Notes under the pieces: model-generated | The model's database searches: none | Seen by the model: the letters and a program-made list of their open reading frames with translations, nothing else | What the model was told of the DNA's origin: nothing | NCBI GenBank assembly: GCA_903895845.1 | Contig: CAITVK010000050.1 | Span: 4,171 to 68,170 of the forward strand | Length of the DNA: 64,000 bases | Direction: 5' to 3' | From: an uncultured Chitinophagaceae bacterium | GTDB lineage: Bacteria > Bacteroidota > Bacteroidia > Chitinophagales > Chitinophagaceae | Made by a program: the position numbers and the translations under genes | Part shown: piece by piece, positions 2,611-54,326 of the stretch | Numbering within the stretch: position 1 is the first letter of the stretch | Layout of the letters: each line of letters starts with the position of its first letter

Positions 2611-2810
2611 AAAACAATATTCTTTTTTGTAAAACGAATATTCTTTCTGGCAAGAAGGATATTCTTTTTGGTAAAAAGGATATTCTTTCTAGTTAAAAGG
2701 ATATTCTTTTTGGTAAGAAAGATATCCTTTCTAGTTAAACGAATATTCTTTTTGGTAAGAAAGATATCCTTTCTGGTAAAACGAATATTCCTTTTAGTAG
2801 AAAAAAAATA
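2611..2810. repeat. 21-bp tandem array A: 9 full units plus a partial one, consensus AaArGATATYCTTTYTrGTa
   Basis: The ATATTC/ATATCC core starts at 2617, 2638, 2659, 2680, 2701, 2722, 2743, 2764 and 2785, exactly 21 bp apart each time. Units alternate between ..ttttggta and ..ttctagtt, giving a 42-bp higher order. The core is near-palindromic (GAATATTC, AAGGATATCCTT-like). Confidence 0.9.
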
Positions 2811-6622: not shown

Positions 6623-6650
6623 TTAATTGATAATTGTTAATTAATAATTA
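6623..6650. repeat. 4 x WTAATTR tandem heptamers
   Basis: ttaattg|ataattg|ttaatta|ataatta. The run spans the aroC stop codon and ends 6 nt upstream of the ykoF-like start. Confidence 0.65.
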
Positions 6651-7935: not shown

Positions 7936-8013
7936 ACAGAAACCCCTTGCGGGGATTATATTATTTAAAAAGAATGCTCAAATTTATGGTAGTGATTTAG
8001 AAGTAGCTGTTTA

Positions 8014-8244
8014 AATGTTCATTTATGCGGTGCAAATGCTTATTTATATCATTTAAATGTTCATTTATTCCGCATCCATGTTCATTTATATGGCTTGAAT
8101 GCTTATTTATGCGACATAAATGTTCATTTATTCCGCATCCATGTTCATTTATATGGCGTGAATGCTTATTTATGTGACATAAATGTTCATTTATTCCGCA
8201 TCCATGTTCATTTATGCGACGCGAATGACCATTTATTCTTGCTA
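8014..8244. repeat. 21-bp tandem array B: 11 units, core AATGYTYATTTAT, with a 63-bp higher-order repeat
   Basis: The ATG of the core starts at 8015, 8036, 8057, 8078, 8099, 8120, 8141, 8162, 8183, 8204 and 8225, all 21 bp apart. The three-unit block aaatgttcatttattccgcatccatgttcatttat... recurs at 8055, 8118 and 8181. Confidence 0.9.
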
Positions 8245-16709: not shown

Positions 16710-17297
16710 TTACCTTGCAACAGGCCCTATTGGAAGAACGACCTTTCCATAAACCTCATTAAGCAAAACAGCCACGCCTGTATAAATGGCAGAACCACCA
16801 CAGATGATACCTTCAAAACCAGTAAATTGTTTGATGGTGGCGTTTCCGGTTGCATCGCCAATGGCCAGCAAAAAGAATAAAATAGTCAGGCTAGCAAATA
16901 CAAATTGCAATGCTTTGTTCAGTCTCAATGTTCCAAAGAACAAAAGGAATGTGAAGATGCCCCACATTACCAGATAGGCAATCATACCGGGATAGGATGT
17001 CTTGTCTATCCAACCTAGTTTTGGAAAAACAATCAGGCCTACCAGAGAAAGCCAGAAGAACCCATAAGAAGTGAAAGCTGTAAGCCCGAACGTGTTGTTC
17101 TTTTTAGCTTCGAGGATGCCGGCAATCACTTGGGCAAGTCCTCCGTAGAAGATACCCATTCCTAAAATCATGGAATTCAATTCATAAAAACCTGCATTGT
17201 GCAGGTTCAGCAGAACCGTTGTCATTCCAAAAGCAAGTAATCCCAATGGGCCGGGATTAGCAGAAGTGTCTTTAAGCGCAATCGTTGTTTGATCCAT
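16710..17297 (-). CDS. satP: GPR1/FUN34/YaaH family acetate/succinate transporter
   Basis: 195-aa ORF with the NPGPLGLLAFGMTT signature and six TM segments. Confidence 0.85.
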   Translation of the reverse strand: MDQTTIALKDTSANPGPLGLLAFGMTTVLLNLHNAGFYELNSMILGMGIFYGGLAQVIAGILEAKKNNTFGLTAFTSYGFFWLSLVGLIVFPKLGWIDKTSYPGMIAYLVMWGIFTFLLFFGTLRLNKALQFVFASLTILFFLLAIGDATGNATIKQFTGFEGIICGGSAIYTGVAVLLNEVYGKVVLPIGPVAR

Positions 17298-17768
17298 AAA
17301 TCGTTTTTTTAGTTAGAAATAAGTTGCTAAGATATTTTTTAAAAGGATAAACGCTACAAAAGGGCAAACTTTTTTTTTCGGCCTCGTTTGCACTCTATTT
17401 TAAATAGATTTGAGGACGAGCATTTGTTGTTTAATCTTTATTAGCAAAGACAGAATAAATAACGGGGGTGTTTTTATTCTTTCCGTTATCTAGAAAATGA
17501 AAAATAAAGATAATCTGATTTGTAGGTGTACAGTCAACTACTAGATGGATTACACTTTTATATATGGTTAGGGGTTGTTTGGACAGTAGGAATAGTTTGT
17601 ATCCGCAGACATAATATTGAAAAAGAAGCTAGCGACCAGAGTTGCAACCGGCAGCTATTCTATGCCCAAGTACTCAAAAAATAATCAAGTATACGCTTTT
17701 TATCTTGCTTTTTTCACGGCACCTATCCTGCAATTGTAAAAGCCTCACCTAAATGTACCTTTTTATGC

Positions 17769-17988
17769 CATTATTCAAGCATTCCACGTCATTATTTATG
17801 TATTACGGATGATTATTCATGCATGATGCGTCATTATTCATGCTTGTTGCGAGACTATTCAAGCATTCCACGTGATTAATTAAGCATTACGGATGATTAT
17901 TTATGCTTGTTGCGTCATTATTTAAGCTTAAATAATGACGTGGAATGCTTAATTAATGACGTGGAATGCTTAAATAATGCGCTGTTGA
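17769..17988. repeat. 21-bp tandem array C: 8 direct units (core SATTATTYAWGC) followed by 3 inverted units
   Basis: The ATTATT-type core starts at 17770, 17791, 17812, 17833, 17854, 17875, 17896 and 17917. Inverted units (gcttaaWtaatgacgtggaat) start at 17926, 17947 and 17968. The junction is a perfect 28-bp palindrome (17913-17940) centred on AAGCTT. Confidence 0.9.
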
Positions 17989-18368
17989 AAAAGTCTTTTT
18001 TGTTTTTTATCAATAATTACTCCCTTTATCCTGGCTAAATTCAACCGTCAAATTTTAAAGTCTGGCTGCCCCAAAAAAAGTAACTCATTGATACTAGCCT
18101 TCATTACAGGTATGATTATACTGCACATGATTTTTTGCCTCTTTTTTTGGAAAAATGGATTTTGATTCTATTACTTTTCTATTGCCTCAAAAAGGATCGA
18201 CCGTTTATTATTCTGTCCGTTGGATAACCAAGAATGAAAGTTTGAGTACCTGAACTGATTTATTTAGCGCAACAATTCTTTAATAATTGATTGGGTAGAA
18301 ATGATTCCGTACAAGTTAATCAGCTTTTAAAAGTCACCCGAAAAAGGTGGCTTTTTTATGCTTTCCAA

Positions 18369-19067
18369 TTAAGAGTTTTTATCAATTGCATCGTCCAGCG
18401 TTTTTCTGTACGTGTTTCCAATAGGAATGGTGTACGTGTCTATCGTGATTTCATTTTTACTAATAAAATCTATCTGGCTCATGGCCACTATGTAAGAACG
18501 GTGCACCCGCACAAACTCGCCTGTAGATAGCTTGCTTTCAAAATCTTTTAAATTCCTGAGTGTGGTCAATGGCGTTTTCTTTCCCTTCAAAAAAATCTGA
18601 GTATAGTCTTTCAAGCCAGAAAAAAATAGCACTTCGCTAAGGGTTATCTTAATTAGTTTGTAGTCTGATTTGATAAACAAAAAGTCTCTTTTTTCTGCTG
18701 TCTCTGTTTTTGCTATGCCGAAAGCATAGTCGTAAATATTTTTCTTGAGCGATAGTACACGTTCCAGGCTGATGGGCGTTTGCAGATAGGCAAACACCTG
18801 TTGCGTATTCACAATGTTTTCTATCTCGTTGCCTGTGCCACTGCATACCAACAATGGGCGGGTATGTTGCTTTTTAAGCCATTTGAGTATATTGTTTGTG
18901 AGCGAGGGGATGGAACAGATGATAACAGATGGATGATCGATGGGTGTATTGAATAATGCATTTTCGTCTACTATCAACACATTGTTGGTGAAGTCGGTGG
19001 TAGATAGATAGGTTTGCAGGATGATGGCCTCCGACAATTCGTGGTGAACAATATAAAAATGAATCAT
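18369..19067 (-). CDS. LytTR-family DNA-binding protein with a degenerate receiver-like N-terminal domain
   Basis: 232-aa ORF. The C-terminal LytTR domain reads FLFIKSDYKLIKITLSEVLFFSGLKDYTQIFL...FVRVHRSYIVAM. The N-terminal half is receiver-sized, but I cannot find the acidic pocket or a clear phospho-acceptor Asp. No kinase gene is adjacent. Confidence 0.75.
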   Translation of the reverse strand: MIHFYIVHHELSEAIILQTYLSTTDFTNNVLIVDENALFNTPIDHPSVIICSIPSLTNNILKWLKKQHTRPLLVCSGTGNEIENIVNTQQVFAYLQTPISLERVLSLKKNIYDYAFGIAKTETAEKRDFLFIKSDYKLIKITLSEVLFFSGLKDYTQIFLKGKKTPLTTLRNLKDFESKLSTGEFVRVHRSYIVAMSQIDFISKNEITIDTYTIPIGNTYRKTLDDAIDKNS

Positions 19068-19169
19068 TGTGAATATTTTAAAAAGTAAATTGTGGCTAAA
19101 GATAAAGCAGTGATGGTAAAGTGCATAAAAAAGGGGCTAATTTGTATTAACCCCCTTTTTTGTCAGTTA

Positions 19170-19493
19170 TTATTTTTCTATTCCAAGGCTATCTAGCTCC
19201 TTGATTGTTACACTAGGAAGACTAGCTTTTTTCTTCATTTTGCTTATTACCAGATTAGCCACTTTAAGTGCCTGTTCCTGGGTAGTAAACTCTTTGTTGC
19301 CTTGCACCACCGGAATAATCCGTTGGTTGATGTATATTTTTTTATTAACCAATATCTGATAGCCCCAGCCTTTATCTAAGCGTAAGGCCTTTGCTTCCAT
19401 TTTGTCGGCATCTTTTGTATAAACTATTACCGATGTGATATAGGCAATAACAGAGAATGCAAACAGAATATAGATCCAGTTGTTTTTAATCAT
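19170..19493 (-). CDS. DUF4907-like small membrane-anchored protein
   Basis: 107-aa ORF with one N-terminal TM helix. It overlaps the Kelch gene stop by 8 nt. This pairing with Kelch proteins is common in Bacteroidota. Confidence 0.55.
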   Translation of the reverse strand: MIKNNWIYILFAFSVIAYITSVIVYTKDADKMEAKALRLDKGWGYQILVNKKIYINQRIIPVVQGNKEFTTQEQALKVANLVISKMKKKASLPSVTIKELDSLGIEK

Positions 19494-20610
19494 TTGTATT
19501 TAGAGCAATATAAGGTTGAAACTCTTCTAAGTCGAAAAAGTAACTTCCGCTTGCTTTACCGGAAGAAACAAATCCACGACCGTTAATCACAAATGCAACG
19601 GCACCTTCACGACCAGAACGCTCGAAGTTTGATTTGCGACTCCACAAATCTGTTTTAAAGTCGTACGCCCAAGTTTTTTGCGTGTATCCACCATTGATAC
19701 CAACGGTGATGTAGGCAGAATCTCCAATTACAAAACCAACGCCACTGTTACGAACAATGTCAGAGTAGTCATCATCATAATTTTCGGTACTTGCATTGCT
19801 AATTACCCTCAAGCCAACCCATTTTCCTTGAGAAATTCCAGAAACTGATGGTGGAAGGAATTTGTAAAAGTCATTTACATTGGCACCGCTTTGTCCGAGA
19901 CCACCTACAATGTAAGCACTATCGCCGTGCACAAAAGTGATTGCATTTAAACGTGGATTTCCAGCTGCACTATAGATTGCATTTAGGTCACTATGAGCTG
20001 TAGAAGTTTCACCAATCTGAGCCATTTGTATCCAAGTTCCCGGAAGGCCATTGGTAGTACCTGTAGGGCTGAATTGCCAGTTGTCTTTTTTGTATTGATT
20101 GTCGTAACCGCAAGTAACATACCCTTTACCTAATAAAGCAAAGGCAGAAGCACCATAACGAGGTGTGGAAGGAAAATCCGCAGCCCTAGTCCATGTGCCG
20201 TTGTCTACATTGTATGCCCAAGTGTCATTGTATTTTGTATAACCATCGGTACCAGTGGTTATATAGCCATTTCTACCAATTGCAAAGGCAACTGCACCGT
20301 TACGGGCAGGAGCAGAATCGCTAGCATTAGGACCAGAAGGTAAACTTGCTATCTGTTGCGCATTAGACCAGCCATCCTTTACACTAAAAGAGAAAAAATC
20401 ATTATACCTAACGTTTCCATCATAGCCTGTACCCACATAAGCGGTGTCACCTACTACAAAAGAAACAGCTTGAAAACGTGTATTACCAGGACTAACAGTT
20501 AGAGAAACCCAGTTGCCACTTTGCAGAAGATTTGTAGTTGTAGGGTTGCAAGCAAGAAACAACAAGACTGCACTTGCTGGCAAGAAAAAGAAATACTTAA
20601 TTAACTTCAT
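19486..20610 (-). CDS. Kelch-repeat beta-propeller lipoprotein
   Basis: The ORF track starts at 20754; I prefer ATG 20610 (MKLIKYFFFLPASAVLLFLAC). It has repeated ...AY(V/I)(G/T)(G/T)G(Y/T)DG... blades. Confidence 0.75.
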   Translation of the reverse strand: MKLIKYFFFLPASAVLLFLACNPTTTNLLQSGNWVSLTVSPGNTRFQAVSFVVGDTAYVGTGYDGNVRYNDFFSFSVKDGWSNAQQIASLPSGPNASDSAPARNGAVAFAIGRNGYITTGTDGYTKYNDTWAYNVDNGTWTRAADFPSTPRYGASAFALLGKGYVTCGYDNQYKKDNWQFSPTGTTNGLPGTWIQMAQIGETSTAHSDLNAIYSAAGNPRLNAITFVHGDSAYIVGGLGQSGANVNDFYKFLPPSVSGISQGKWVGLRVISNASTENYDDDYSDIVRNSGVGFVIGDSAYITVGINGGYTQKTWAYDFKTDLWSRKSNFERSGREGAVAFVINGRGFVSSGKASGSYFFDLEEFQPYIALNTND

Positions 20611-20894
20611 TGTTCTAAAATTTTGGCTGAAATTATAAGTGGCGGTGTTAGGCAAATAGTTAAAATGGATTTTCAAGTGTATTTTGCTGATTAATGATTG
20701 TTTTATGCCTATCAAATGCCGTTTTATGGTATAGTTAAAATCGGTGTATTTCACAGTTCAATACATTTCGGGTATATACATTTATTAAAAGACAAAATTT
20801 AATTAATCATCGTCATATTGACTTCATTCATCCATAGTAACAATTTTGTAACAGGCAGTAATTATAGTATTGCCAATGTTGCAAAGTATTCCAT

Positions 20895-29673: not shown

Positions 29674-30150
29674 TTAGTACTCAACTTTTGCATTGCTTTC
29701 CTGCCATAGTCGGAAAGCTTCCAATGCTTCCTCCCGCAACAATTGCTTTGTAAACAGTTTTCTTTCGCCCAATGGCAATGCTATTTCCTCATAAATAAAC
29801 TGGTCGTCGAACTGAATTGCCGCAGCATCTGCCTTGGTATTGGCATAAAATAAGCGGGCAGGTCTAGCCCAATAGATGGCGCCGAGGCACATGGGGCAGG
29901 GCTCGCAACTAGTGTAGAGGTCGCAGCCGTCTAACTGAAAAGTATCCAATATTTTGCACGCATTGCGGATAGCAACCACCTCGGCATGGGCAGTAGGGTC
30001 GTTGCTGCTGGTAACCTGATTTGCCCCGCGGGCTATTATTTTGCCATCTTTTACAATCACTGCACCAAAAGGTCCGCCTTTTCCCTCTGTTACATTTGTT
30101 ATAGAAAGGCGGATTGCCTCTTTCATAAACACTTCTTCCTCATTCGTCAT
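29674..30150 (-). CDS. guaD: CDA-fold nucleoside/guanine deaminase
   Basis: 158-aa ORF with HAEVVAI...CEPCPMC zinc motifs. It is the size of the B. subtilis GuaD type and sits in a purine-catabolic neighbourhood. Confidence 0.7.
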   Translation of the reverse strand: MTNEEEVFMKEAIRLSITNVTEGKGGPFGAVIVKDGKIIARGANQVTSSNDPTAHAEVVAIRNACKILDTFQLDGCDLYTSCEPCPMCLGAIYWARPARLFYANTKADAAAIQFDDQFIYEEIALPLGERKLFTKQLLREEALEAFRLWQESNAKVEY

Positions 30151-30446
30151 TTTATTCAGGTATTATTTGTTTGTCAATATTATTTCTGTTGTTTACTTAG
30201 TGGGTCTTCGTTTTATCCTACTGTAGATTAAATTAGCAATTTCTGCATTTTTTTCAAAATTAAGGCATTGAAGATAAATAAAATACAGATAATATGGTTT
30301 TTAAATATTAAAATTAGATAGCTGGCTGATTGATGGCAGATTCAGGATGAAATAATGCTAGCGGATACTATTGCCCAAACAACAACGGCTATTTTGAAGT
30401 ATTACCTCCAAAACAGCCGCTATTCTATGTTCATTTTCTATTTATT

Positions 30447-31115
30447 TTATAAAATAGATGTGTTTTCTATCGGGCCAAAAGCGCCATAACCAATGGTGTT
30501 TTTGCCACAAACCATCACATTTATTTCCTCATTCTTCACAAAGCCAGTCAGCTTTTTGTGCTTCACACTTCCTTGCACAATCATCACCGGGCAAGGGCTG
30601 CCAGTGGGAACCGTAATGGCATCGGCAGTAACTGTCAATGCAAAAGCTGGTCCTCTAAAAATTACAAATACATAATCTTTTGCGCCAGTAATTTCTGGAG
30701 CAATCAAATTTACATAACCACCCTTTTCCACTTCTACAGTAACGGCTGCACCTGCAGCAGGCACTATTGTGTCGTGCACAATATCTCCAGTAGTGGCATC
30801 AAAGCCGCCCCTATTGATGGTATCCTTCACACCATTTGCCACCCCACTCACATAATCGGCACTATCCCTCAGTATAGTATCCATCTCTATGCAAGCGGTG
30901 TCCAAAGCATTTTTAGCCAATTCGCCATTTTTCCTGTTCGAATACAACGTATCCAATGCCGTTCGTTTTGTTAAAATCAATGCACCAGCAAACGGAGGGG
31001 CAGGGAACAACAATGGATTTGTGCCATAGCCGCCACTCACTTTTAAGGCCCTTTCAGACATTACGGTTGGTTCGGACACTTTCCAATTGAGAAGCGGAAC
31101 GATTTCTTTTGACAT
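30447..31115 (-). CDS. Hypothetical protein (orphan to me)
   Basis: 222-aa ORF with coding-like composition and no signal peptide. The N-terminal half looks helical and the C-terminal half beta-rich. A terminator-like hairpin lies downstream at ~30385-30420. Confidence 0.55.
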   Translation of the reverse strand: MSKEIVPLLNWKVSEPTVMSERALKVSGGYGTNPLLFPAPPFAGALILTKRTALDTLYSNRKNGELAKNALDTACIEMDTILRDSADYVSGVANGVKDTINRGGFDATTGDIVHDTIVPAAGAAVTVEVEKGGYVNLIAPEITGAKDYVFVIFRGPAFALTVTADAITVPTGSPCPVMIVQGSVKHKKLTGFVKNEEINVMVCGKNTIGYGAFGPIENTSIL

Positions 31116-31272
31116 TTTAATGATTTAATTAATCAACTAACATTGTTGATTGGGTGAAAGTAGGTTAGTAATTAACTTTCCAAATTTATTATTATGCTTT
31201 TCTAGGGTTTCAGGTGTAAAATAAAATCTACTTGAGCCAGTATTACCCCTTTTATTGAAATAAACACTACTG

Positions 31273-31482
31273 TTTAAGAAATAAAAGAGCTAGTTTATAC
31301 TTTAGAATAGCTAATGGAAAGAATAAAAGAGCTCTTTTATTTCTAAAACCATCTCTCCGAAAGTTTTAATTAGCTAATTGAAACTTTAAATTAGCTAAAT
31401 AATGTTTTAAAATAGCTAATTGAAAGAATAAAAGAGCTCTTTTATTTCTTAAACTACCTAATTAATTCTTTAAACTAGCTAG
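31273..31482. repeat. 21-bp tandem array D: 10 units, core TTWAAnTAGCTAA / AAAGAGCTCTTT
   Basis: AGCTA/AGCTC-type cores start at 31288, 31309, 31330, (31351 degenerate), 31372, 31393, 31414, 31435, 31456 and 31477, all 21 bp apart. The 28-nt block gaaagaataaaagagctcttttatttct occurs twice, at 31317 and 31422 (105 bp = 5 units apart). It contains a perfect 20-bp palindrome. Confidence 0.85.
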
Positions 31483-31660
31483 TTTTTTTCGGTTTATGGG
31501 CAGCTTTGCGATGAACAACCCTTATAGGATTTGAAATCCTATAAGGGTTTGCAGTGGTGTTGGGTGTGGATTGAGGTGATGGACTTATTTTTGGAAAATA
31601 AAAAACTAGTGAGAAAAACACTAACAGACTTAAAGCAATTTAAAATTTTCAAATTAAATT

Positions 31661-32440
31661 ATGAAAAAGAAAATGAAACCTGAAAATATTACAATACCAA
31701 GTCATCCAGTTGGTATGCCTTTACATCGGAATAGATTTGACAAAACGATTTGGGAATCAAGAAATTTATCTAATTTGGGAGATATTTATATATCTCGATT
31801 AAATGAAATTATAGAAAAAGGGTATGAAATACTCACAAAACAAATAGCAGGGGGAGCCATTGTAGTTGATAATGAAGCTTCATTTCAACTTCAATTTGCG
31901 TACATTTTAAAAACTATTGGCGAGTTGTATAAGTTCAGTTCTGATGATTTGTTTACGATAGAATTAGAAAGTAAGTTTTCTTTTACCGAAGGATTACAGA
32001 AAAGTAAATCCAAAAATGCAAGAATTGATGTCATCTTAACACTTGGTGATTCAACAAATTATGCGACCGCTGCAATTGAATTAAAATTTTTTAAGGAAAA
32101 AAATCATAGAGAACCTAATAATAGATATGACGTTTTTTTAGACTTACATAATCTAGAGAATTATAAAAAAGGGAAATTATTTGACATCACTCTTTTTATA
32201 CTCGGCACCAATCATAGTCACTATGTAAACCAAAAAGATTACTCACCGTTGACTACTTGTTTTGATTTCAGGGATGGCGCCCAATATCTTGCGGGTACTT
32301 TGCTAGTATATGAAACAGATAAACCTTATGGTAACCCACTAAGACTTGAAAATAATTACAATTTCAAATGGGATGTCATTGAGAAAAAATTTAATAACAC
32401 GGATAATTCTAATTTGTATTTTCTAAAACTTAAAGTTTAG
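31661..32440 (+). CDS. Hypothetical protein with a PD-(D/E)xK nuclease-like motif
   Basis: 259-aa ORF. ...NARIDVILTLGDSTNYATAAIELKFFK... gives D-x19-E-x-K in a beta-strand-like context, with an upstream acidic residue (VDNEASFQLQF). No methyltransferase gene is adjacent. Confidence 0.5.
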   Translation: MKKKMKPENITIPSHPVGMPLHRNRFDKTIWESRNLSNLGDIYISRLNEIIEKGYEILTKQIAGGAIVVDNEASFQLQFAYILKTIGELYKFSSDDLFTIELESKFSFTEGLQKSKSKNARIDVILTLGDSTNYATAAIELKFFKEKNHREPNNRYDVFLDLHNLENYKKGKLFDITLFILGTNHSHYVNQKDYSPLTTCFDFRDGAQYLAGTLLVYETDKPYGNPLRLENNYNFKWDVIEKKFNNTDNSNLYFLKLKV

Positions 32441-32516
32441 GAATAAAAAAATATTTTAGAAGTCAAGATATGTATACCCATTCTTTTCTTTCTATCTTAA
32501 AATCAACAGAAATATA

Positions 32517-32705
32517 ATGAGCGATATAGTAGCAACAGAGAATACCTTTTGCTTTCCTGTTTGCAATAAATGCAAGCATCATTTAGGGGGAGATAAATGT
32601 TACGCATTTGACAAAATACCTAAGGAAATTCTAATGGGAGACAATATGCATAATAAAGTTTTGTTGGAACAAAAGAATGATATTGTTTTCGAAGAAAAAA
32701 AATAG
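32517..32705 (+). CDS. Small Cys4 (zinc-ribbon-like) protein
   Basis: 62-aa ORF with C-x4-C-x2-C-x9-C (CFPVCNKCKHHLGGDKC). Whether it is coding is uncertain. Confidence 0.35.
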   Translation: MSDIVATENTFCFPVCNKCKHHLGGDKCYAFDKIPKEILMGDNMHNKVLLEQKNDIVFEEKK

Positions 32706-32868
32706 AACACATCTAGCTCAAGTCTTTCAGAAAATCATGATTTGGCGCAAAACCTATGGCTTGTGCCTAGCTGTTACTAAGTTTTATAAAACTTCATAAA
32801 ACAAATGAATCCGCCTCTTTAAACTTAATAAACCTACTTTTACAGAAATAATAATTATGGTAATCAAC

Positions 32869-33141
32869 ATGTCAGACATACAACTCTTCCAAATCTTAAA
32901 ACAAAAGATGGGCGAACAAGAGGCAGAGGCGTTGGTAACCTTTGTAGACCACAAGATAAAAGAAAACAACGAATTCAATTTGAATATACTTGCTACAAAA
33001 GCTGATATTCATGATTTGAAAGGCAACCTTGAGGTAAAAATAGCAGACTCAAAAGCAGAAATGATTAAATGGATGTTTATCTTTTGGATAGGTCAAGTAG
33101 CTGTTACAGTTGGTTTTCTAGTGGTTTATTTAAAAAAGTAA
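32869..33141 (+). CDS. DUF1640-like coiled-coil protein with a C-terminal TM helix
   Basis: The ORF opens at 32857; MSDIQLF at 32869 is an alternative start. LATKADIHDLKGNLEVKIADSKAEMIKWMFIFWIGQVAV resembles DUF1640-type proteins. Confidence 0.5.
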   Translation: MSDIQLFQILKQKMGEQEAEALVTFVDHKIKENNEFNLNILATKADIHDLKGNLEVKIADSKAEMIKWMFIFWIGQVAVTVGFLVVYLKK

Positions 33142-33166
33142 AAAGATATTGAAGCATAAAAAGTAG

Positions 33167-33192
33167 AGACGGATATTAATCCGTCTTTTTTT
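33167..33192 (+). terminator. Rho-independent terminator
   Basis: agacggat / atta / atccgtct followed by a T-run. Confidence 0.7.
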
Positions 33193-33261
33193 ATTGCAGA
33201 AAAGACCTTCGAATACGATTACTTAATAAATCTACCTAAATTTGGTTACAAGAAATTTTTT

Positions 33262-33495
33262 ATGAACGGAAGAATAATAAATATAGACCCAGAAATATTA
33301 GGAGGCACACCTGTTTTCTTTGGAACAAGGGTACCCATCAAAAACCTTTTTGATTATTTGGAAAGTGGCGATTCGATAGAAATATTTTTGGAAGACTTTG
33401 AAGGTGTCAGCAAAAACCAAGTAATAAAAGTATTGGAGATGTCGCAAAAACTAATTGAAACATCCTCAAATATTCTCCATGAAAATTTTGCTTGA
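33262..33495 (+). CDS. DUF433 antitoxin-like protein
   Basis: 77-aa ORF. IDPEILGGTPVFFGTRVPIKNLFDYLESGDSIEIFLEDF is the DUF433 pattern. Confidence 0.75.
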   Translation: MNGRIINIDPEILGGTPVFFGTRVPIKNLFDYLESGDSIEIFLEDFEGVSKNQVIKVLEMSQKLIETSSNILHENFA

Positions 33496-33805
33496 TGAAT
33501 GTGTTACCAAACGTTTGAAAAAACATTTGCCTTCTTTTGAAGTGTTTACAGTAAGGGAACTTGGATTGGGCGGAATTAAAAACGGCAAACTGATGGCTTA
33601 TTGCGTGGACAATGATTTTGAAATACTGCTGACGATTGACAAAAACCTTATGTTCCAACAAAACCTAGAAAAATATCCTGTTTCTATAGTTGTTCTAAAT
33701 TGTGTAACTAGCAAAATAGAAGAATTGATAGACTTTATTCCTAGTTTCCTAGTTCAAATTATAGAATTCAAGAAACACAATGCCTATCTAGTCAATAAAG
33801 ATTAA
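33479..33805 (+). CDS. DUF5615 (PIN-like) toxin-like protein
   Basis: The ORF track starts at 33455; I prefer ATG 33479 (MKILLDECV), which overlaps the DUF433 stop by 17 nt in typical TA fashion. Confidence 0.7.
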   Translation: MKILLDECVTKRLKKHLPSFEVFTVRELGLGGIKNGKLMAYCVDNDFEILLTIDKNLMFQQNLEKYPVSIVVLNCVTSKIEELIDFIPSFLVQIIEFKKHNAYLVNKD

Positions 33806-33939
33806 TGGCTTTTCTCTTAACCGAAAAGCCATCATTATTTTCGAAAACCGTTAACCTTCGCTTCCCTATAAACTTTTTCCGATAGATTTGCTTTATACCG
33901 AATTAGGTATATTATATCCCGCATTAAATAATTTGAATT

Positions 33940-35037
33940 ATGATTGGCTATCGTTTTATACAATTTGATCCCGCAGATAATACTAAAAGCAAGTTCGAAC
34001 AGATGCTCGATTTGTTTACCCAACTCCTCACCTACACCAATGGCGATGCCTCCGAAGCACTCAGTTGGATGAGCGAACTGGATAAGAAATACCAGTTTAC
34101 CAACAACGAATATGGCATCGGCGACTTTATAGACGACCTGAAAGAGAATGGCTACCTGAATGAAAACCCAGTAAATGGCGACTTTAAGATTACGAGCAAA
34201 ACGGAACAATCTATTCGTAAGAAAAGCCTGGAAGAGATTTTTGGCAAACTGAAGAAATCGAAACAAGGCAACCACCAAACAAAAAAGCCGGGTCAGGGGG
34301 ATGAAATAAGTTCGGATAGTCGCCCTTATCAGTTTGGGGATATGCTGGAGCAGATAGATTTTACCGAAAGCATCCGCAATGCGCAGATAAACCACGGCGT
34401 GGAAAGTTTCAGGATGCACGAAGACGACCTTCAGATAAGAGAAAACGATTTTAAAACGCAGACGTCTACAGTGTTGATGATAGACATTTCGCACTCCATG
34501 ATTTTGTATGGGGAAGACAGGATAACACCCGCCAAGAAAGTAGCAATGGCATTGAGCGAACTGATACAAACAAAATACCCAAAAGACACGTTGGACATTG
34601 TAGTATTTGGAAACGATGCCTGGCCAATAGAAGTGAAGGATCTGCCGTATCTGCAAGTGGGTCCTTATCATACAAACACCGTTGCAGGATTAGAATTGGC
34701 AATGGATTTATTGCGTAGAAGAAAGAACCCCAACAAACAGATTTTTATGATTACCGATGGTAAACCTACCTGTTTAAAGATTGGGGGACGGTATTATAAA
34801 AACAGTTTTGGGTTGGATAGAAAAGTGGTGAACCGTTGCATTAACCTTGCTGCACAATGCAAGAAACTAAAGATACCTATCACTACGTTTATGATTGCCA
34901 GCGACCCGTACCTGCAAAATTTTGTACAGGAATTTACAGAAATGAACAATGGTAAAGCCTTCTTTGCAAGCTTGGATAAGCTAGGTGCTTTCATATTCAA
35001 AGACTTTGAAAGCGGGAAGAGAAAGACGGTGTACTAA
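33940..35037 (+). CDS. von Willebrand factor A (VWA) domain protein
   Basis: 365-aa ORF with a MIDAS-like DISHSM and VVFGNDAW...FMITDGKPT. The 278-aa antisense ORF 33835-34671 is low-complexity and I reject it. Confidence 0.8.
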   Translation: MIGYRFIQFDPADNTKSKFEQMLDLFTQLLTYTNGDASEALSWMSELDKKYQFTNNEYGIGDFIDDLKENGYLNENPVNGDFKITSKTEQSIRKKSLEEIFGKLKKSKQGNHQTKKPGQGDEISSDSRPYQFGDMLEQIDFTESIRNAQINHGVESFRMHEDDLQIRENDFKTQTSTVLMIDISHSMILYGEDRITPAKKVAMALSELIQTKYPKDTLDIVVFGNDAWPIEVKDLPYLQVGPYHTNTVAGLELAMDLLRRRKNPNKQIFMITDGKPTCLKIGGRYYKNSFGLDRKVVNRCINLAAQCKKLKIPITTFMIASDPYLQNFVQEFTEMNNGKAFFASLDKLGAFIFKDFESGKRKTVY

Positions 35038-35069: not shown

Positions 35070-35100
35070 GAAGATGTAAATCACAAACTGCAATTGCCTT

Positions 35101-35135
35101 AACTCATCACTCATAATTTATAACTCATAACTAAC
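35101..35135. repeat. 5 x AACTCAT-type tandem heptamers abutting the start codon
   Basis: aactcat|cactcat|aatttat|aactcat|aactaac, then ATG 35136. This is the same heptamer family as at 1196-1223 when read in gene orientation. Confidence 0.7.
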
Positions 35136-38384: not shown

Positions 38385-38478
38385 AAGTCTTAAGCTGTAA
38401 GTCATAAGTCGTAAGTAAAAGGAGGCTTTGGCTAATTGCTTCCGGCTTACAACTTACTACTTATGACTTACAACTCTT
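38385..38478. repeat. Inverted pair of heptamer runs: 5 x AAGYNNT (38385-38419) and 5 x NRCTTAY (38444-38478)
   Basis: aagtctt|aagctgt|aagtcat|aagtcgt|aagtaaa ... ggcttac|aacttac|tacttat|gacttac|aactctt. The arms are about 23 bp complementary with 2 mismatches. The maf ATG (38463) lies inside the right arm. Confidence 0.7.
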
Positions 38479-39053
38479 CTCTGATTCTTGCTTCACAGTC
38501 GCCACGTAGAAAACAATTGTTGGAATGGGCAGAAGTCCCTTTTTACATTATCGTTAAAAGTACCGATGAAAGTTATCCTCCAGACTTGCCTATTTCAGAA
38601 GTACCTGTCTTTATAGCACGCGAAAAAGCAATTGGTGTACAGAAACATATAGCAGATGATTATCCTGAACATATTGGTAAAACAATACTTGCAGCTGATA
38701 CTGTTGTGGTTTTGGATAACTTAGTTATCGGTAAACCAACTGATAGGGATGATGCCATCAGGATACTGAAAGCATTGGCAGGAAGGAGACACGCTGTTAT
38801 TACGGGTGTTGTTTTATTGACCGGGAAAATAGAAATAGCTTTCGCTGATACGACTTATGTTACCTTTCATCCGCTTACAGAGGATGAAATTGTGTTTTAT
38901 GTAGATAAATATAAACCCTACGATAAGGCTGGTGCCTATGCAATACAAGAATGGATTGGTGTGGTGGGCATCAAAGCAATAGAGGGAGACTTTTATAATG
39001 TAATGGGGCTTCCGGTGAGCAGGGTAGTGAGAGAATTGATAATTGACAACTGA
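38463..39053 (+). CDS. maf: Maf-family nucleoside triphosphate pyrophosphatase
   Basis: The ORF track starts at 38436; I prefer ATG 38463 (MTYNSSLILASQSPRRKQLL). ADTVV and GAYAIQE motifs are present. Confidence 0.85.
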   Translation: MTYNSSLILASQSPRRKQLLEWAEVPFYIIVKSTDESYPPDLPISEVPVFIAREKAIGVQKHIADDYPEHIGKTILAADTVVVLDNLVIGKPTDRDDAIRILKALAGRRHAVITGVVLLTGKIEIAFADTTYVTFHPLTEDEIVFYVDKYKPYDKAGAYAIQEWIGVVGIKAIEGDFYNVMGLPVSRVVRELIIDN

Positions 39054-39063
39054 TAATTATGTT

Positions 39064-46379: not shown

Positions 46380-46631
46380 AATAAATAAAATAAACAGACC
46401 TGTTTAAAGAATAAACACATGAATAAATAAAATAAACAGACCTGTTTAAAGTATAAACAGATGAATAAATAAAATAAACACATCTGTTTAAAGAATAAAC
46501 ACATGAATAAATAAAATAAACACATCTGTTTAAAGAATAAACACATGAATAAATAAAATAAACGCATCTGTTTAAAGAATAAACACATGAATAAATAAAA
46601 TAAAAAGACCTGTTTAAAGGATAAACAGAGT
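46380..46631. repeat. 21-bp tandem array E: 12 units (6 x 42 bp), aataaataaaataaacagacc|tgtttaaagaataaacacatg
   Basis: ATAAACA starts at 46390, 46411, 46432, 46453, 46474, 46495, 46516, 46537, 46558, 46579, 46600 and 46621, all 21 bp apart. The dyad AAACAG-ac-CTGTTT / AAACAC-at-CTGTTT recurs every 42 bp. Confidence 0.9.
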
Positions 46632-54158: not shown

Positions 54159-54326
54159 GTTTGTGGTGTTAACACCAAACTTTGTGGTGTCAGCACCAAT
54201 GTTTAGGGTGCTAGCACCATGCTTTGTGGTGTTAACACCAAACTTTAGGGTGATAACACCAAACTTTAGGGTGCTAACACCAAATCTTATGGTGTTGACA
54301 CCAATGTTTGTGGTGCTAACACCATA
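54159..54326. repeat. 21-bp tandem array F: 8 units, TTTrkGGTGyTArCACCAAay
   Basis: GGTG starts at 54164, 54185, 54206, 54227, 54248, 54269, 54290 and 54311, all 21 bp apart. Each unit holds a 12-bp dyad (GGTGTTAACACC is perfect in units 1 and 4). Confidence 0.9.

Follow-up and report, generated by a model that had tools for sequence, protein, structure and literature searches.

A dispersed array of phased 21-bp repeats that reverses through a palindrome in an uncultured freshwater Chitinophagaceae bacterium

Architecture of array C

The DNA analysed here, called the window, is a stretch of 64,000 nucleotides of chromosomal DNA from an uncultured freshwater Chitinophagaceae bacterium. Array C lies in it among housekeeping genes, about 470 bp from the start of the SatP gene and 380 bp from a gene that encodes an atypical LytTR-domain protein (18369-19067, minus strand). 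The array has stops in all six frames, which rules out a coding repeat. A known RNA was also discarded, as Rfam gave no match at the gathering thresholds and the sub-threshold matches were spurious miRNA-hairpin hits arising from the hairpin. No intrinsic terminator (GC-rich hairpin with a U-run) was found at the array in a terminator scan.

The repeated unit is 21 bp long and consists of a 12-bp core, SATTATTYAWGC, and a 9-bp spacer. Eight direct cores start at 17769, 17790, 17811, 17832, 17853, 17874, 17895 and 17916, and three cores in inverted orientation, GCTTAAATAATG or a variant of it, come next, at 17926-17937, 17947-17958 and 17968-17979. In the third of these units the core stands alone, and the sequence continues with cgctgttga. 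Concerning the spacers of the long arm, three types were distinguished, a (ATTCCACGT), b (ATTACGGAT) and c/d (TTGTTGCGT), and their order a-b-c-d-a-b-c forms an 84-bp higher-order repeat. Two bases, GC, are common to the final direct core and the first inverted one, which places the dyad between 17926 and 17927; from this point, the core centres lie at -5, -26, -47... and at +5, +26, +47 bp. The features are collected in Table 1.

Table 1. Features of array C and its flanks in the window.
Feature	Coordinates	Strand	Evidence
Conserved left edge, CCTGCAATTGTmAAAAsCC-CACCTAAATGTnCCTTTTTrTGC	17727..17768	+	85-95% with L084, L086, L088, L100; partly L094
Long arm, 8 direct 21-bp units	17769..17927	+	TRF, repeat search, 21-bp register; same unit order in paralogs
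Left terminal 33 bp (core, spacer a, core), inverted-repeat partner of 17947-17979	17769..17801	+	Sequence comparison
Perfect 28-bp palindrome, centre AAGCTT	17913..17940	.	Script; comparison with paralogs
Short arm, 3 inverted cores and 2 type-a spacers (2.6 units; 1.6 in paralogs)	17926..17979	-	TRF, repeat search
Right terminal 33 bp, reverse complement of the first 33 bp of array C	17947..17979	-	Sequence comparison
Conserved right flank	17980..18162	+	First ~45 bp (GCGCTGTTGAAAAAGTCTTTTTTGTTTTTTATCAATAATTAC) common to four loci; remainder in L084 and L088 only
Best-conserved right-flank block, putative outward-facing sigma-70-type promoter-like sequence (TTGATA-17-TATGAT)	18088..18116	+	Consensus scan; kept in window, L084, L088
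Intrinsic-terminator-like hairpin with T-runs on both strands, ending the LytTR gene	18329..18355	+	Terminator scan

This arrangement had been noticed in a preliminary description of the sequence, and its layout in 21-bp register agrees with the eight direct and three inverted units in 21-bp phase reported there. The perfect 28-bp palindrome described at the switch was also recovered: a script placed it exactly at the coordinates of Table 1, with its halves, cgtcattatttaag and cttaaataatgacg, abutting as perfect 14-nt arms. Likewise, units 1 and 5 had been described as near reverse complements of the inverted units, which holds if the units are rotated (core plus spacer versus spacer plus core) and one C/T difference is allowed.

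Tandem Repeats Finder (TRF) reported the direct run at period 21 with an 84-bp super-period (score 253) and the inverted run at period 21 with 93% match, and the periodicity is nested at 7, 21 and 84 bp. A repeat search of the window detected zero-gap inverted arms (17875-17926 and 17927-17978) and, at the ends of the array, a 54-nt inverted repeat with 80% identity. Each array closes with 33 bp that are the reverse complement of its opening 33 bp, at 29 of 33 positions in the window and at 32 of 33 in the copies L084 and L088. By chance, a perfect 28-bp palindrome is expected ~64000 x 4^-14 = 2e-4 times per window. With at most one mismatch, the core occurs 15 times in the window against 4.7 expected, and 11 of these occurrences are inside array C.

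The 12-bp cores follow each other head-to-tail every 21.0 bp, that is, every two helical turns, and so they lie on one face of the helix. At one end the final core meets an inverted one head-to-head, their centres being 10 bp apart, and beyond it the 21-bp spacing continues with one or two more inverted cores. As a result, the site has two-fold symmetry about the dyad, with one long arm and one short arm.

Dispersed copies of the array

Copies of the array were searched for in metagenomes with a two-core pattern. The scan recovered the ortholog of the window (L093/L097, 98% identical) and further loci with different neighbour genes (L084, L088, which is the same as L092, L094, L087, L090, L091, L086 and L100). 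Two other matches were discarded as chance hits of the search pattern, L089 inside a probably eukaryotic ORF and L096 on an eukaryote-like, repeat-rich contig. Five of the family-bearing contigs come from one metagenome. Moreover, the L084-, L087- and L090-type flanks were found at the window's own depth in independent runs, which indicates that these copies belong to one genome, and the depth over array C was 4-15 times that of its flanks. Array C is thus one of at least six dispersed copies in the genome of this lake bacterium.

In all copies that reach across the junction, the same dyad is followed by inverted cores, so the inverted arm is kept in all copies found; its loss in every relative carrying the array, named beforehand as a ground for rejecting the cruciform and binding-site readings, is clearly not what is observed. 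As all copies reverse at one point, this is a real, maintained element and not a chance oddity. The 28-bp dyad is perfect in six of seven copies; it is identical to that of the window in L087, L088/L092, L090 and L091, and L084 matches it at 27 of 28 positions. Across the 47 bp around the dyad, 0-5 differences were counted in pairwise comparisons of copies. Even L094, the most diverged copy, in which ~13-20% of array positions differ, is identical over ~45 bp at the dyad. In all paralogous copies, conservation of the element is highest in the dyad block.

Cores change less than spacers, with substitutions among paralogs at 0-7% for the eight near-invariant core positions versus 3-19% for spacer positions, and information contents of 1.57 bits for the core and 1.07 bits for the spacer, a modest contrast drawn from comparisons that are not independent of each other.

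The number of direct units varies between 8 and 10 per copy, mainly beside the dyad, where the copies differ in the count of identical d-type units (CATTATTYAAGC-TTGTTGCGT). Strain-to-strain changes in unit number or orientation had been proposed as a check; the number does change among copies, and no flipped isoform was found in any assembled copy. In L094, a locus-specific core variant (ATTGTTC) is mirrored on both arms and extends the perfect palindrome to 62 bp, which indicates that the symmetry has been renewed and not merely inherited.

These features bear on whether the function of array C could be the DNA secondary structure itself, with a cruciform or a lagging-strand hairpin acting as a structural signal, built from the palindrome itself and from more extended arms in which the inverted units pair with units 5-6. 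Such a structure might be recognised by a structure-specific protein, pause replication or create a recombination hotspot. The palindrome is perfect, has no spacer and is AT-rich at its centre, unit gain and loss are concentrated beside the dyad, and the mirrored variant of L094 suggests intrastrand templating. Hairpins are known to stimulate slippage. Folding of 17850-17990, proposed earlier as a check, gave -36.2 kcal/mol as single-stranded DNA (z = -9.3 against shuffled sequences) and -56 kcal/mol as RNA, values that follow automatically from any inverted repeat. Extrusion is predicted to be thermodynamically possible; however, 14-bp arms are short for stable extrusion at physiological superhelicity, and a cruciform needs neither 8-10 direct units nor strict phasing. 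Secondary structure as the function of the array is therefore considered improbable.

Flanks and neighbour genes

The genes beside the copies are functionally unrelated, and include SatP, a PIN toxin-antitoxin pair, DUF1003, a T9SS adhesin, an S1/P1 nuclease, SusC and GAPDH. No Rep, Par, transposase or recombinase genes are linked to the array, and no Rep family turned up when the genes around the window copy and around six other copies were scanned with Pfam. The flanking sequence shared among copies differs in length (0-133 bp on the left and 0-290 bp on the right), and beyond the array its inverted symmetry is no better than in shuffled controls. In every relative compared, synteny breaks at the position of array C, leaving no orthologous empty site for comparison.

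Regarding the SatP gene, the nearest species shares only ~100 bp upstream of it and has no array there, array C lies ~370 bp beyond this conserved region, and no such array was found upstream of SatP at 80 loci of other Bacteroidota species. Hence, SatP expression is not obviously dependent on the array. The TAnnTTTG box does not adjoin array C on either side in the window, and in the paralogs the boxes of the left-hand genes are ~250-270 bp from the array. A single lake metatranscriptome (n=1) contained a SatP gene fragment and nothing over array C, and is uninformative in this respect. In the right flank, the hairpin that ends the LytTR gene could also end a ~235-nt transcript starting in the flank. 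The promoter-like block in this flank is only a lead, given that the lineage otherwise uses Bacteroidetes-type TAnnTTTG -7 boxes.

The LytTR-domain gene that adjoins the window copy offers a specific candidate binder, with array C as the operator of this regulator, a special case of docking by a DNA-binding protein. Its product has a degenerate receiver-like N-terminus without a Response_reg match. LytTR regulators bind direct repeats 11-13 bp apart with a period of ~21 bp from start to start (PMC6193735), which is the period of array C. Furthermore, in the relative L105/L106 an array of 21-bp units with an 84-bp super-period likewise lies downstream of the orthologous gene. Nevertheless, array C is on the 3' side of the LytTR gene, away from its promoter, the core of the L105 array (TCAACCGTACGGTT) is unrelated although the LytTR protein is 83% identical, the LytTR orthologs of L101, L103 and L107 have no array there, and LytTR genes are missing around all other loci of the family. 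In known LytTR operators, the repeats form a pair that is 4-11 bp upstream of the -35 element of the regulated or autoregulated operon (PMC6193735), whereas array C presents 8+3 cores without an adjoining promoter box. In addition, its core does not appear to fit the LytTR consensus. Taken with these differences, a LytTR operator appears quite improbable.

The preliminary description had also considered the arms as convergent binding sites, of the kind present at some replication, partition or recombination sites. The idea of convergent sites gains from the exact two-fold symmetry of the cores, their two-turn spacing and the strong conservation of the dyad, while the contexts offered with it were not supported.

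Concerning recombination, array C could be an invertible switch in which recombination between the 33-bp ends flips the ~150-190-bp interior, like the invertible promoters of Bacteroidetes. The ~33-bp inverted repeats flank a segment of the usual size, and the core variant AATTAA sits in different inverted units in the window and in L093/L097, as if moved between strains. However, at the loci with recognisable flanks the long arm is always at the same left edge and the short arm at the same right flank, and no flipped isoform appeared in two to four independent assemblies per locus. Strand-changing joints were not seen either (a weak observation, since it comes from contigs only), there is no TAnnTTTG box inside the array, and there is no adjacent recombinase gene. 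An invertible switch is hence highly improbable.

As for replication and partition, array C could represent a plasmid-type iteron origin or a partition centromere, either integrated or chromosomal. Iteron plasmids combine iterons with an inverted-repeat operator, and some centromeres are arrays of repeats in mixed orientation. Array C resembles them in its tandem 21-bp direct repeats, within the 17-22-bp range of iterons, beside an inverted repeat of the same sequence. Against this, no rep, parA/parB/parR or mobilisation gene occurs at any copy, the context is chromosomal and housekeeping, there are at least six copies per genome in addition to other array families, and a search of 72,556 plasmids, 50,697 phages and IMG/VR gave no similar sequence, so a plasmid, phage or viral origin was discarded. 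DnaA boxes (TTATCCACA with at most one mismatch) are not enriched in the window (23 against 22.4 expected), with none in 17300-18400. This possibility is already largely refuted and would be extremely improbable. An oriC was also considered, as both the GC skew and the direction of the genes change near 31 kb, and was rejected by the same lack of DnaA box enrichment.

Other 21-bp arrays

Besides array C, the window contains five other 21-bp arrays, and all six window arrays with a TRF score of at least 50 have a period of 21 or 42. In relatives there are more 21-bp arrays with super-periods of 42, 63 or 84 bp and other cores, many of them palindromic, and an inverted unit closes the arrays of two further families as well (L103 8376-8521 and L085/L099). 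In this clade, 21-bp phasing thus has the look of a rule. Array B is immediately next to the -33 region of a Bacteroidetes-type chorismate synthase promoter, which indicates that at least some arrays sit where regulators act. The sister arrays behave as VNTRs between lake populations, with deletions of 42 bp and 126 bp in run X5.

Two ideas about these arrays were abandoned. Intrinsic curvature as the cause of the 21-bp period was rejected because a wedge model predicts a straight array C, with an end-to-end/contour ratio of 0.97, straighter than 90% of random 21-mer arrays. The same model predicts strong curvature for arrays A and D; its figures are approximate. The notion that arrays avoid convergent intergenic regions was dropped since the L105 array lies between convergent genes.

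Selfish repeat or protein-assembly site

Array C could be a foldback/BOX-like non-autonomous element or a satellite without host function. Such an element would spread by transposition in trans or by ectopic recombination, expand by slippage and acquire its inverted end by template switching, with no dedicated binder except possibly a transposase. Several observations fit this origin: at least six dispersed intergenic loci with unrelated neighbours, 33-bp terminal inverted repeats matching at 29-32 of 33 positions, an interior of tandem units whose count varies (8-10) with nested 7/21/84-bp periodicity, an orthologous SatP upstream region without array in the nearest species, sister arrays that vary between lake populations, and no isolated cores above chance elsewhere in the window. 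Moreover, an IS256-like transposase gene splits the L091 copy.

On the other hand, no target-site duplication and no direct repeat flanking the ends was found in the copies compared, the outer ends are not fixed, as the length of shared flank varies by copy, no transposase or RAYT gene is linked, and the flanks lack inverted symmetry beyond the array. A neutral model also leaves unexplained the exact 21n periods of all long arrays of the clade, whatever their sequence, and the better-conserved dyad, unless palindrome-internal gene conversion accounts for all of it. A selfish or neutral repeat is the main alternative and is viewed as somewhat unlikely.

The explanation that fits best, held tentatively and short of even confidence, is that array C is a copy of a lineage-specific, dispersed, non-coding element that acts at the DNA level as a docking platform for a sequence-specific DNA-binding protein: a palindrome-seeded, helically phased protein-assembly site for a putative binder, expanded on one side. 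The palindrome would be the ancestral site of highest affinity, occupied by a head-to-head pair of proteins, from which further protomers would be added cooperatively head-to-tail along both arms. The long arm may then have grown by slippage or unequal exchange of the units adjacent to the palindrome, and growth at this position would explain why the copies differ mainly in the d-type units at the dyad. Inverted copying between the arms could have kept them alike. Candidate roles of the complex are the control of flanking promoters, insulation or chromosome organisation.

Some observations count against docking. Outside array C, the window has four one-mismatch matches to the core against 4.7 expected, none of them above chance at the window promoters, and isolated cores at chance level mean that there is no ordinary regulon of single sites. 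The unrelated neighbour genes and the distance of array C from the conserved SatP upstream region also weigh against it. Furthermore, nested periodicity, copy-number polymorphism and rapid turnover between species typify neutral or selfish satellite DNA as well.

A wider proposal, rather unlikely at present, is that freshwater Sediminibacterium-like Chitinophagaceae carry an as yet undescribed genome-wide system of family-specific, palindrome-seeded 21-bp arrays phased at exactly two turns, each family with its own oligomerising binder, that work as enhancer- or insulator-like or chromosome-organising filaments. Array C, with a dyad cap conserved at at least six loci, would be the clearest example of such a system.

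Comparison with known systems

The BOX elements of Streptococcus pneumoniae (boxA, variable boxB, boxC) are, like array C, dispersed, intergenic and non-coding, with variable tandem units between complementary ends and many copies next to unrelated genes without a linked transposase. They differ in their 45-bp repeated unit, in having distinct modules as ends and in the phylum, whereas array C uses its 21-bp units for the ends and the interior alike, keeps a spacing of exactly two turns and joins its inverted end to the direct run through a perfect palindrome. The foldback (FB) elements of Drosophila are also dispersed and have inverted arms of short tandem repeats that are unequal, variable and may lack a loop, but they are eukaryotic, of kilobase scale and with known target duplications, features not seen in array C.

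REP, BIME and REPIN elements of Enterobacteria and Pseudomonas share with array C the dispersed intergenic palindromic clusters with changes of orientation, and some REP-type elements are bound by host proteins (gyrase, IHF). REP units, however, are ~35-bp hairpins in alternating orientation, while array C changes direction just once, after a long run of direct units, and no RAYT gene was found with it. Iteron plasmids of the pSC101, pPS10 and R6K type have phased direct repeats of 17-22 bp, to which monomers bind, and an inverted repeat of the same sequence, to which dimers bind. Array C differs from them in the absence of a rep gene, an AT-rich unwinding element or DnaA boxes, and in being chromosomal and multi-copy with 8-10 units.

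In the heptads of the pSM19035 Omega repressor and in the sites of head-to-tail oligomerising regulators such as BldC (PMC5859096), short direct and inverted repeats are read by one polymerising protein and the number of repeats varies by site. Their units are 7 or 9 bp, contiguous and present in 2-10 copies at promoters, whereas array C has a 21-bp period with a 9-bp spacer and lies hundreds of bp from the nearest start codon.

If these arrays are protein-assembly sites, they would point to a new class of chromosomal nucleoprotein structure in abundant uncultured lake bacteria, with long, helically phased, dyad-nucleated filaments at many loci, and array C provides a defined 33-bp or 28-bp bait for the candidate binder. 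If they are selfish, they would be, as far as the literature searched shows, the first foldback/BOX-like family in Bacteroidota and a clean natural example of palindrome-stimulated repeat expansion. In either case, the arrays break short-read assemblies, with contigs ending inside them, and mark synteny breakpoints, and their copy number varies between lake populations, which makes them usable as strain markers.

Architecture and genomic setting of array C

Re-reading of the sequence confirmed that the stretch at 17769-17988 (array C) consists of direct 21-bp units followed by inverted ones, as the preliminary description had stated, and likewise the perfect 28-bp palindrome at 17913-17940, which is produced by a GC overlap between the eighth direct core (17916-17927) and the first inverted core. 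The spacers follow the order a-b-c-d-a-b-c, which accounts for the 84-bp super-period reported by Tandem Repeats Finder (TRF), and the array also has a 7-bp sub-period. Concerning symmetry, the core centres lie at -5, -26, -47... and +5, +26, +47 bp from the palindrome centre (the dyad, 17926/17927), so the 21-bp spacing is held on both arms and the layout is exactly two-fold symmetric. Read as its reverse complement, the inverted arm (core, spacer a, core) matches the first 33 bp, so that array C has terminal inverted repeats. By chance, about 2e-4 perfect 28-bp palindromes would be expected per 64 kb.

Array C is not coding and matches no RNA family in Rfam. A structural role as a cruciform or hairpin had been proposed from the sequence. 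Folding of 17850-17990 gave -36.2 kcal/mol as DNA (z -9.3) and -56.1 and -53.9 kcal/mol as RNA; these extreme energies are due to the inverted repeat itself. Such a role is conceivable but unlikely. Going by an approximate wedge-model calculation, intrinsic curvature does not account for the array.

The window belongs to a Bacteroidota chromosome encoding, among others, EPSP synthase, chorismate synthase, PEP carboxykinase and T9SS cargo proteins, and a lake-metagenome scaffold is identical to it over 6.6 kb around array C. Going by the SatP gene, the nearest genomes are MAGs of uncultured Chitinophagaceae; going by the LytTR gene, the nearest named organism is Parasediminibacterium sp. (78%). 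Array C lies in a 1071-bp gap between the LytTR gene 3' end and the SatP gene start. Species-level relatives have no array upstream of SatP, and in the nearest one (L002) similarity ends about 100 bp upstream of the SatP start codon. At the edge of this conserved region there is a -7-type box, TAGATTTG (17405-17412, + strand), on the SatP side and directed at array C, and it could signal an as yet unannotated transcript that enters the array.

Features of array C, its surroundings and the other 21-bp arrays (window coordinates)
Feature	Position	Strand	Sequence	Remarks
Array A	2611-2804		AAAGGATATTCTTT	intergenic
-7 box	7979-7986	-	TAAATTTG	44 bp from chorismate synthase start codon
Array B	8011-8238		AATGTTCATTTAT	intergenic
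SatP/YaaH-family permease gene	16710-17297	-		start faces array C
Array C, direct 21-bp units (n = 8)	starts 17769 to 17916, 21-bp steps	+	12-bp core SATTATTYAWGC + 9-bp spacer	
Array C, spacer types			a ATTCCACGT, b ATTACGGAT, c/d TTGTTGCGT-like	
Array C, inverted cores (n = 3)	17926-17937, 17947-17958, 17968-17979	-		
Promoter-like block	18088-18116	+	TTGATA-17-TATGAT	outward-facing; best-conserved right-flank block
Terminator-like hairpin	18329-18355			downstream of promoter-like block
LytTR-domain regulator gene	18369-19067	-		3' end faces array C
Array D	~31256-31486		TTAGCTAA	intergenic
Array E	46380-46627		AATAAACA, both orientations	intergenic
Array F	54160-54324		GGTGTTAACACC	intergenic

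The adjacent LytTR regulator was considered as the reader of array C, since LytTR binding sites share its period (PMC6193735). However, regulator and array failed the co-occurrence tests across copies and relatives, and this reading is quite improbable. No receiver domain was matched in the N-terminal half of the protein. The cluster of Kelch-repeat, DUF4907 and LytTR genes (18369-20754) is kept in every relative examined (L101-L107), and in each of them synteny breaks off 3' of the LytTR gene; L105/L106 have at this position an unrelated array of 21-bp units whose super-period is 84 bp (TCAACCGTACGGTT, L105 5041-5249).

A dispersed family within one genome

In four freshwater metagenome runs, the depth of array words was 4-15 times that of the flanks, and contigs passed from the array into foreign flanks. 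JGI metagenome contigs were then scanned for two phased cores. The scan recovered the window ortholog (L093 and L097, 98%) as well as family members in other gene contexts (L084, L088 = L092, L094, L087, L090, L091, L086 and L100), five of the family contigs coming from one sample. The foreign flanks in the runs are of three types (L084, L087 and L090); in each of the four runs, the depth of the L084-type contig is close to that of the window. The shared sample and the foreign flanks at matching depth indicate that the copies are paralogs within one genome, with at least 6-7 loci according to the count of distinct left and right flanks.

The genes adjoining the copies have unrelated functions. 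Among the neighbours of all examined copies there were no Rep, Par, transposase or recombinase genes, save an IS256-like gene in L091. With no Rep or Par gene at the copies, the earlier suggestion of a replication or partition site (origin or centromere) is poorly supported and highly improbable. The IS256-like transposase gene (L091 72-1014) is inserted in the short arm, the inverted one, truncating the array after the first inverted unit.

Regarding the flanks, about 40 bp on the left are common to most copies (up to 133 bp in L084, L086 and L100), and about 45 bp on the right are common to four loci (170-290 bp in the window, L084 and L088). Neither inverted symmetry of the flanks outside the array nor target-site duplications at its copies were found. 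The conserved right-flank ranges are 17980-18355 in the window, 6520-7511 in L084 and 7090-7343 in L088; in L084 a 221-codon ORF without a Pfam match lies between the promoter-like block and the terminator-like hairpin. On these features, the right flank could represent a small transcription unit or else an sRNA gene copied along with the array. Genes of this lineage usually have their Bacteroidetes TAnnTTTG box at 20-70 bp upstream, and no such box adjoins array C.

Conservation of the dyad and turnover of the units

Every junction-spanning copy has the same structure, with 8-10 direct units in a-b-c-d order, the dyad and inverted units. The inverted arm is kept in all of these copies; it has 2.6 units in the window and in the ortholog, and 1.6 units in the others. 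Six of 7 loci have a perfect palindrome, L084 matching 27/28, and in L094 the perfect palindrome extends over 62 bp, with a locus-specific core variant (ATTGTTC) on both arms. Any two loci show 0-5 differences within 47 bp around the dyad. Even in L094, the most diverged copy, about 45 bp at the dyad are identical to the other copies, and the differences elsewhere in the array amount to 7% at strict-core, about 40% at degenerate-core and 13-19% at spacer positions. Eight core positions are more conserved than the spacers.

Length differences among copies concern chiefly the number of identical d-type units adjoining the dyad (1 in the window, 2 in L084, and 3 in L088, L087 and L090). Hence, the dyad is kept, and the most dynamic part lies right beside it. 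As to the changes between strains that had been suggested as a check, the window and its 98% ortholog have equal unit numbers and differ in which inverted unit carries the core variant AATTAA. The possibility that array C is an invertible switch is poorly supported and very unlikely.

Other 21-bp arrays in the window and its relatives

Six tandem arrays in the window reach a TRF score of at least 50, all with a period of 21 or 42 bp, and no window array of any other period does so. Their cores are unrelated, and several are palindromic. For arrays A and F, one or more paralogs each are present elsewhere in the genome. In metagenome run X5, as compared with the window and run X1, array A lacks 42 bp (2 units; 2700-2743) and array B lacks 126 bp (6 units; 8053-8180), which indicates that both are copy-number polymorphic between lake populations. 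Array B takes up the interval between the genes for EPSP synthase and chorismate synthase, and it abuts the -33 region of the Bacteroidetes-type chorismate synthase promoter (7979-8031).

Other 21-bp arrays, with super-periods of 42, 63 or 84 bp, were found in relatives (L003, L103, L105/L106, L094, L095 and L099). The array at L103 8376-8521 ends inverted (three copies of TTGACCAA, then TTGGTCAA), and the L085/L099 family likewise ends in an inverted unit (GGCTTAAATAAGCC). Across 80 other Bacteroidota species (L002-L081; 637 kb), one single 21-bp array of at least 100 bp was present, and among 36 short tandem arrays 23 had periods divisible by 7. In L094 two 21-bp families, TCAACACTCAAAATATATATC and that of array C, adjoin in one intergenic region (1486-1600 and 1623-1841). 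Heptamer-based short repeats (periods 7, 14 and 28) are common, as in the window at 6624-6649, 35100-35132, 38385-38475 and 39034-39058.

Possible nature of the element

Any explanation has to account for the exact two-turn phasing, common to arrays of unrelated sequence, the two-fold symmetric cores, the best-conserved and repeatedly renewed dyad, the higher conservation of core than spacer at eight positions, the multi-locus spread and the polar growth beside the dyad. The most economical model, tentatively held, is that of a palindromic site for a head-to-head pair of a hypothetical protein, extended on one side. The palindrome would bind the protein pair and would also stimulate slippage or unequal exchange, by which the site would be extended on one side into a head-to-tail array along one helical face; a protein filament could then nucleate at the dyad and spread over both arms. 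Nevertheless, this model is weakened by several observations: stand-alone cores are not above chance in the window, the neighbour genes of the copies are unrelated, the conserved promoter region of SatP is a long way from array C, and the turnover is satellite-like with a nested repeat structure.

The main rival, less probable though still to be reckoned with, is a selfish foldback or BOX-like repeat without host function. It would fit the terminal inverted repeats, the dispersal, the variable internal repeat number and the rapid turnover. Less easily reconciled with it are a dyad conserved beyond the rest of the array, periods that are always 21n, and ends that are neither fixed nor marked by target duplications. 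Both explanations are compatible and not mutually exclusive.

Full-text literature searches did not turn up any account of arrays of this kind from Bacteroidota, Chitinophagaceae or Sediminibacterium. The architecture is akin to BOX or foldback-type dispersed repeats, and also to iteron-plus-inverted-repeat and omega-type binding arrays; the element is a variant form of known architectures and no demonstrably new category. Because the dyad cap is conserved and the 21-bp rule holds across the clade, the protein-binding hypothesis is open to direct testing.

Other features of the window

The amidohydrolase gene is followed closely at its 3' end by a hairpin (2890-2965) with a 15-bp stem, ATGGTCAACAACCTT-CAAA-AGGTTGTTGACCAT. 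Its depth in metagenome contigs is about 5 times that of the flanks, suggesting either a shared terminator or a palindromic repeat dispersed in the manner of REP elements.

At about 31 kb, where array D lies, the cumulative GC skew is at its lowest and the genes change from minus to plus orientation; G+C is low (0.31) over 31-34 kb. The region at about 30000-34000 is origin-like in appearance, yet canonical DnaA boxes are not enriched. Moreover, 16-bp arms that form a perfect inverted repeat around a 1-nt gap (AACCCTTATAGGATTT / AAATCCTATAAGGGTT) occur at 31517-31549, after array D and ahead of the promoter of the gene at 31661.
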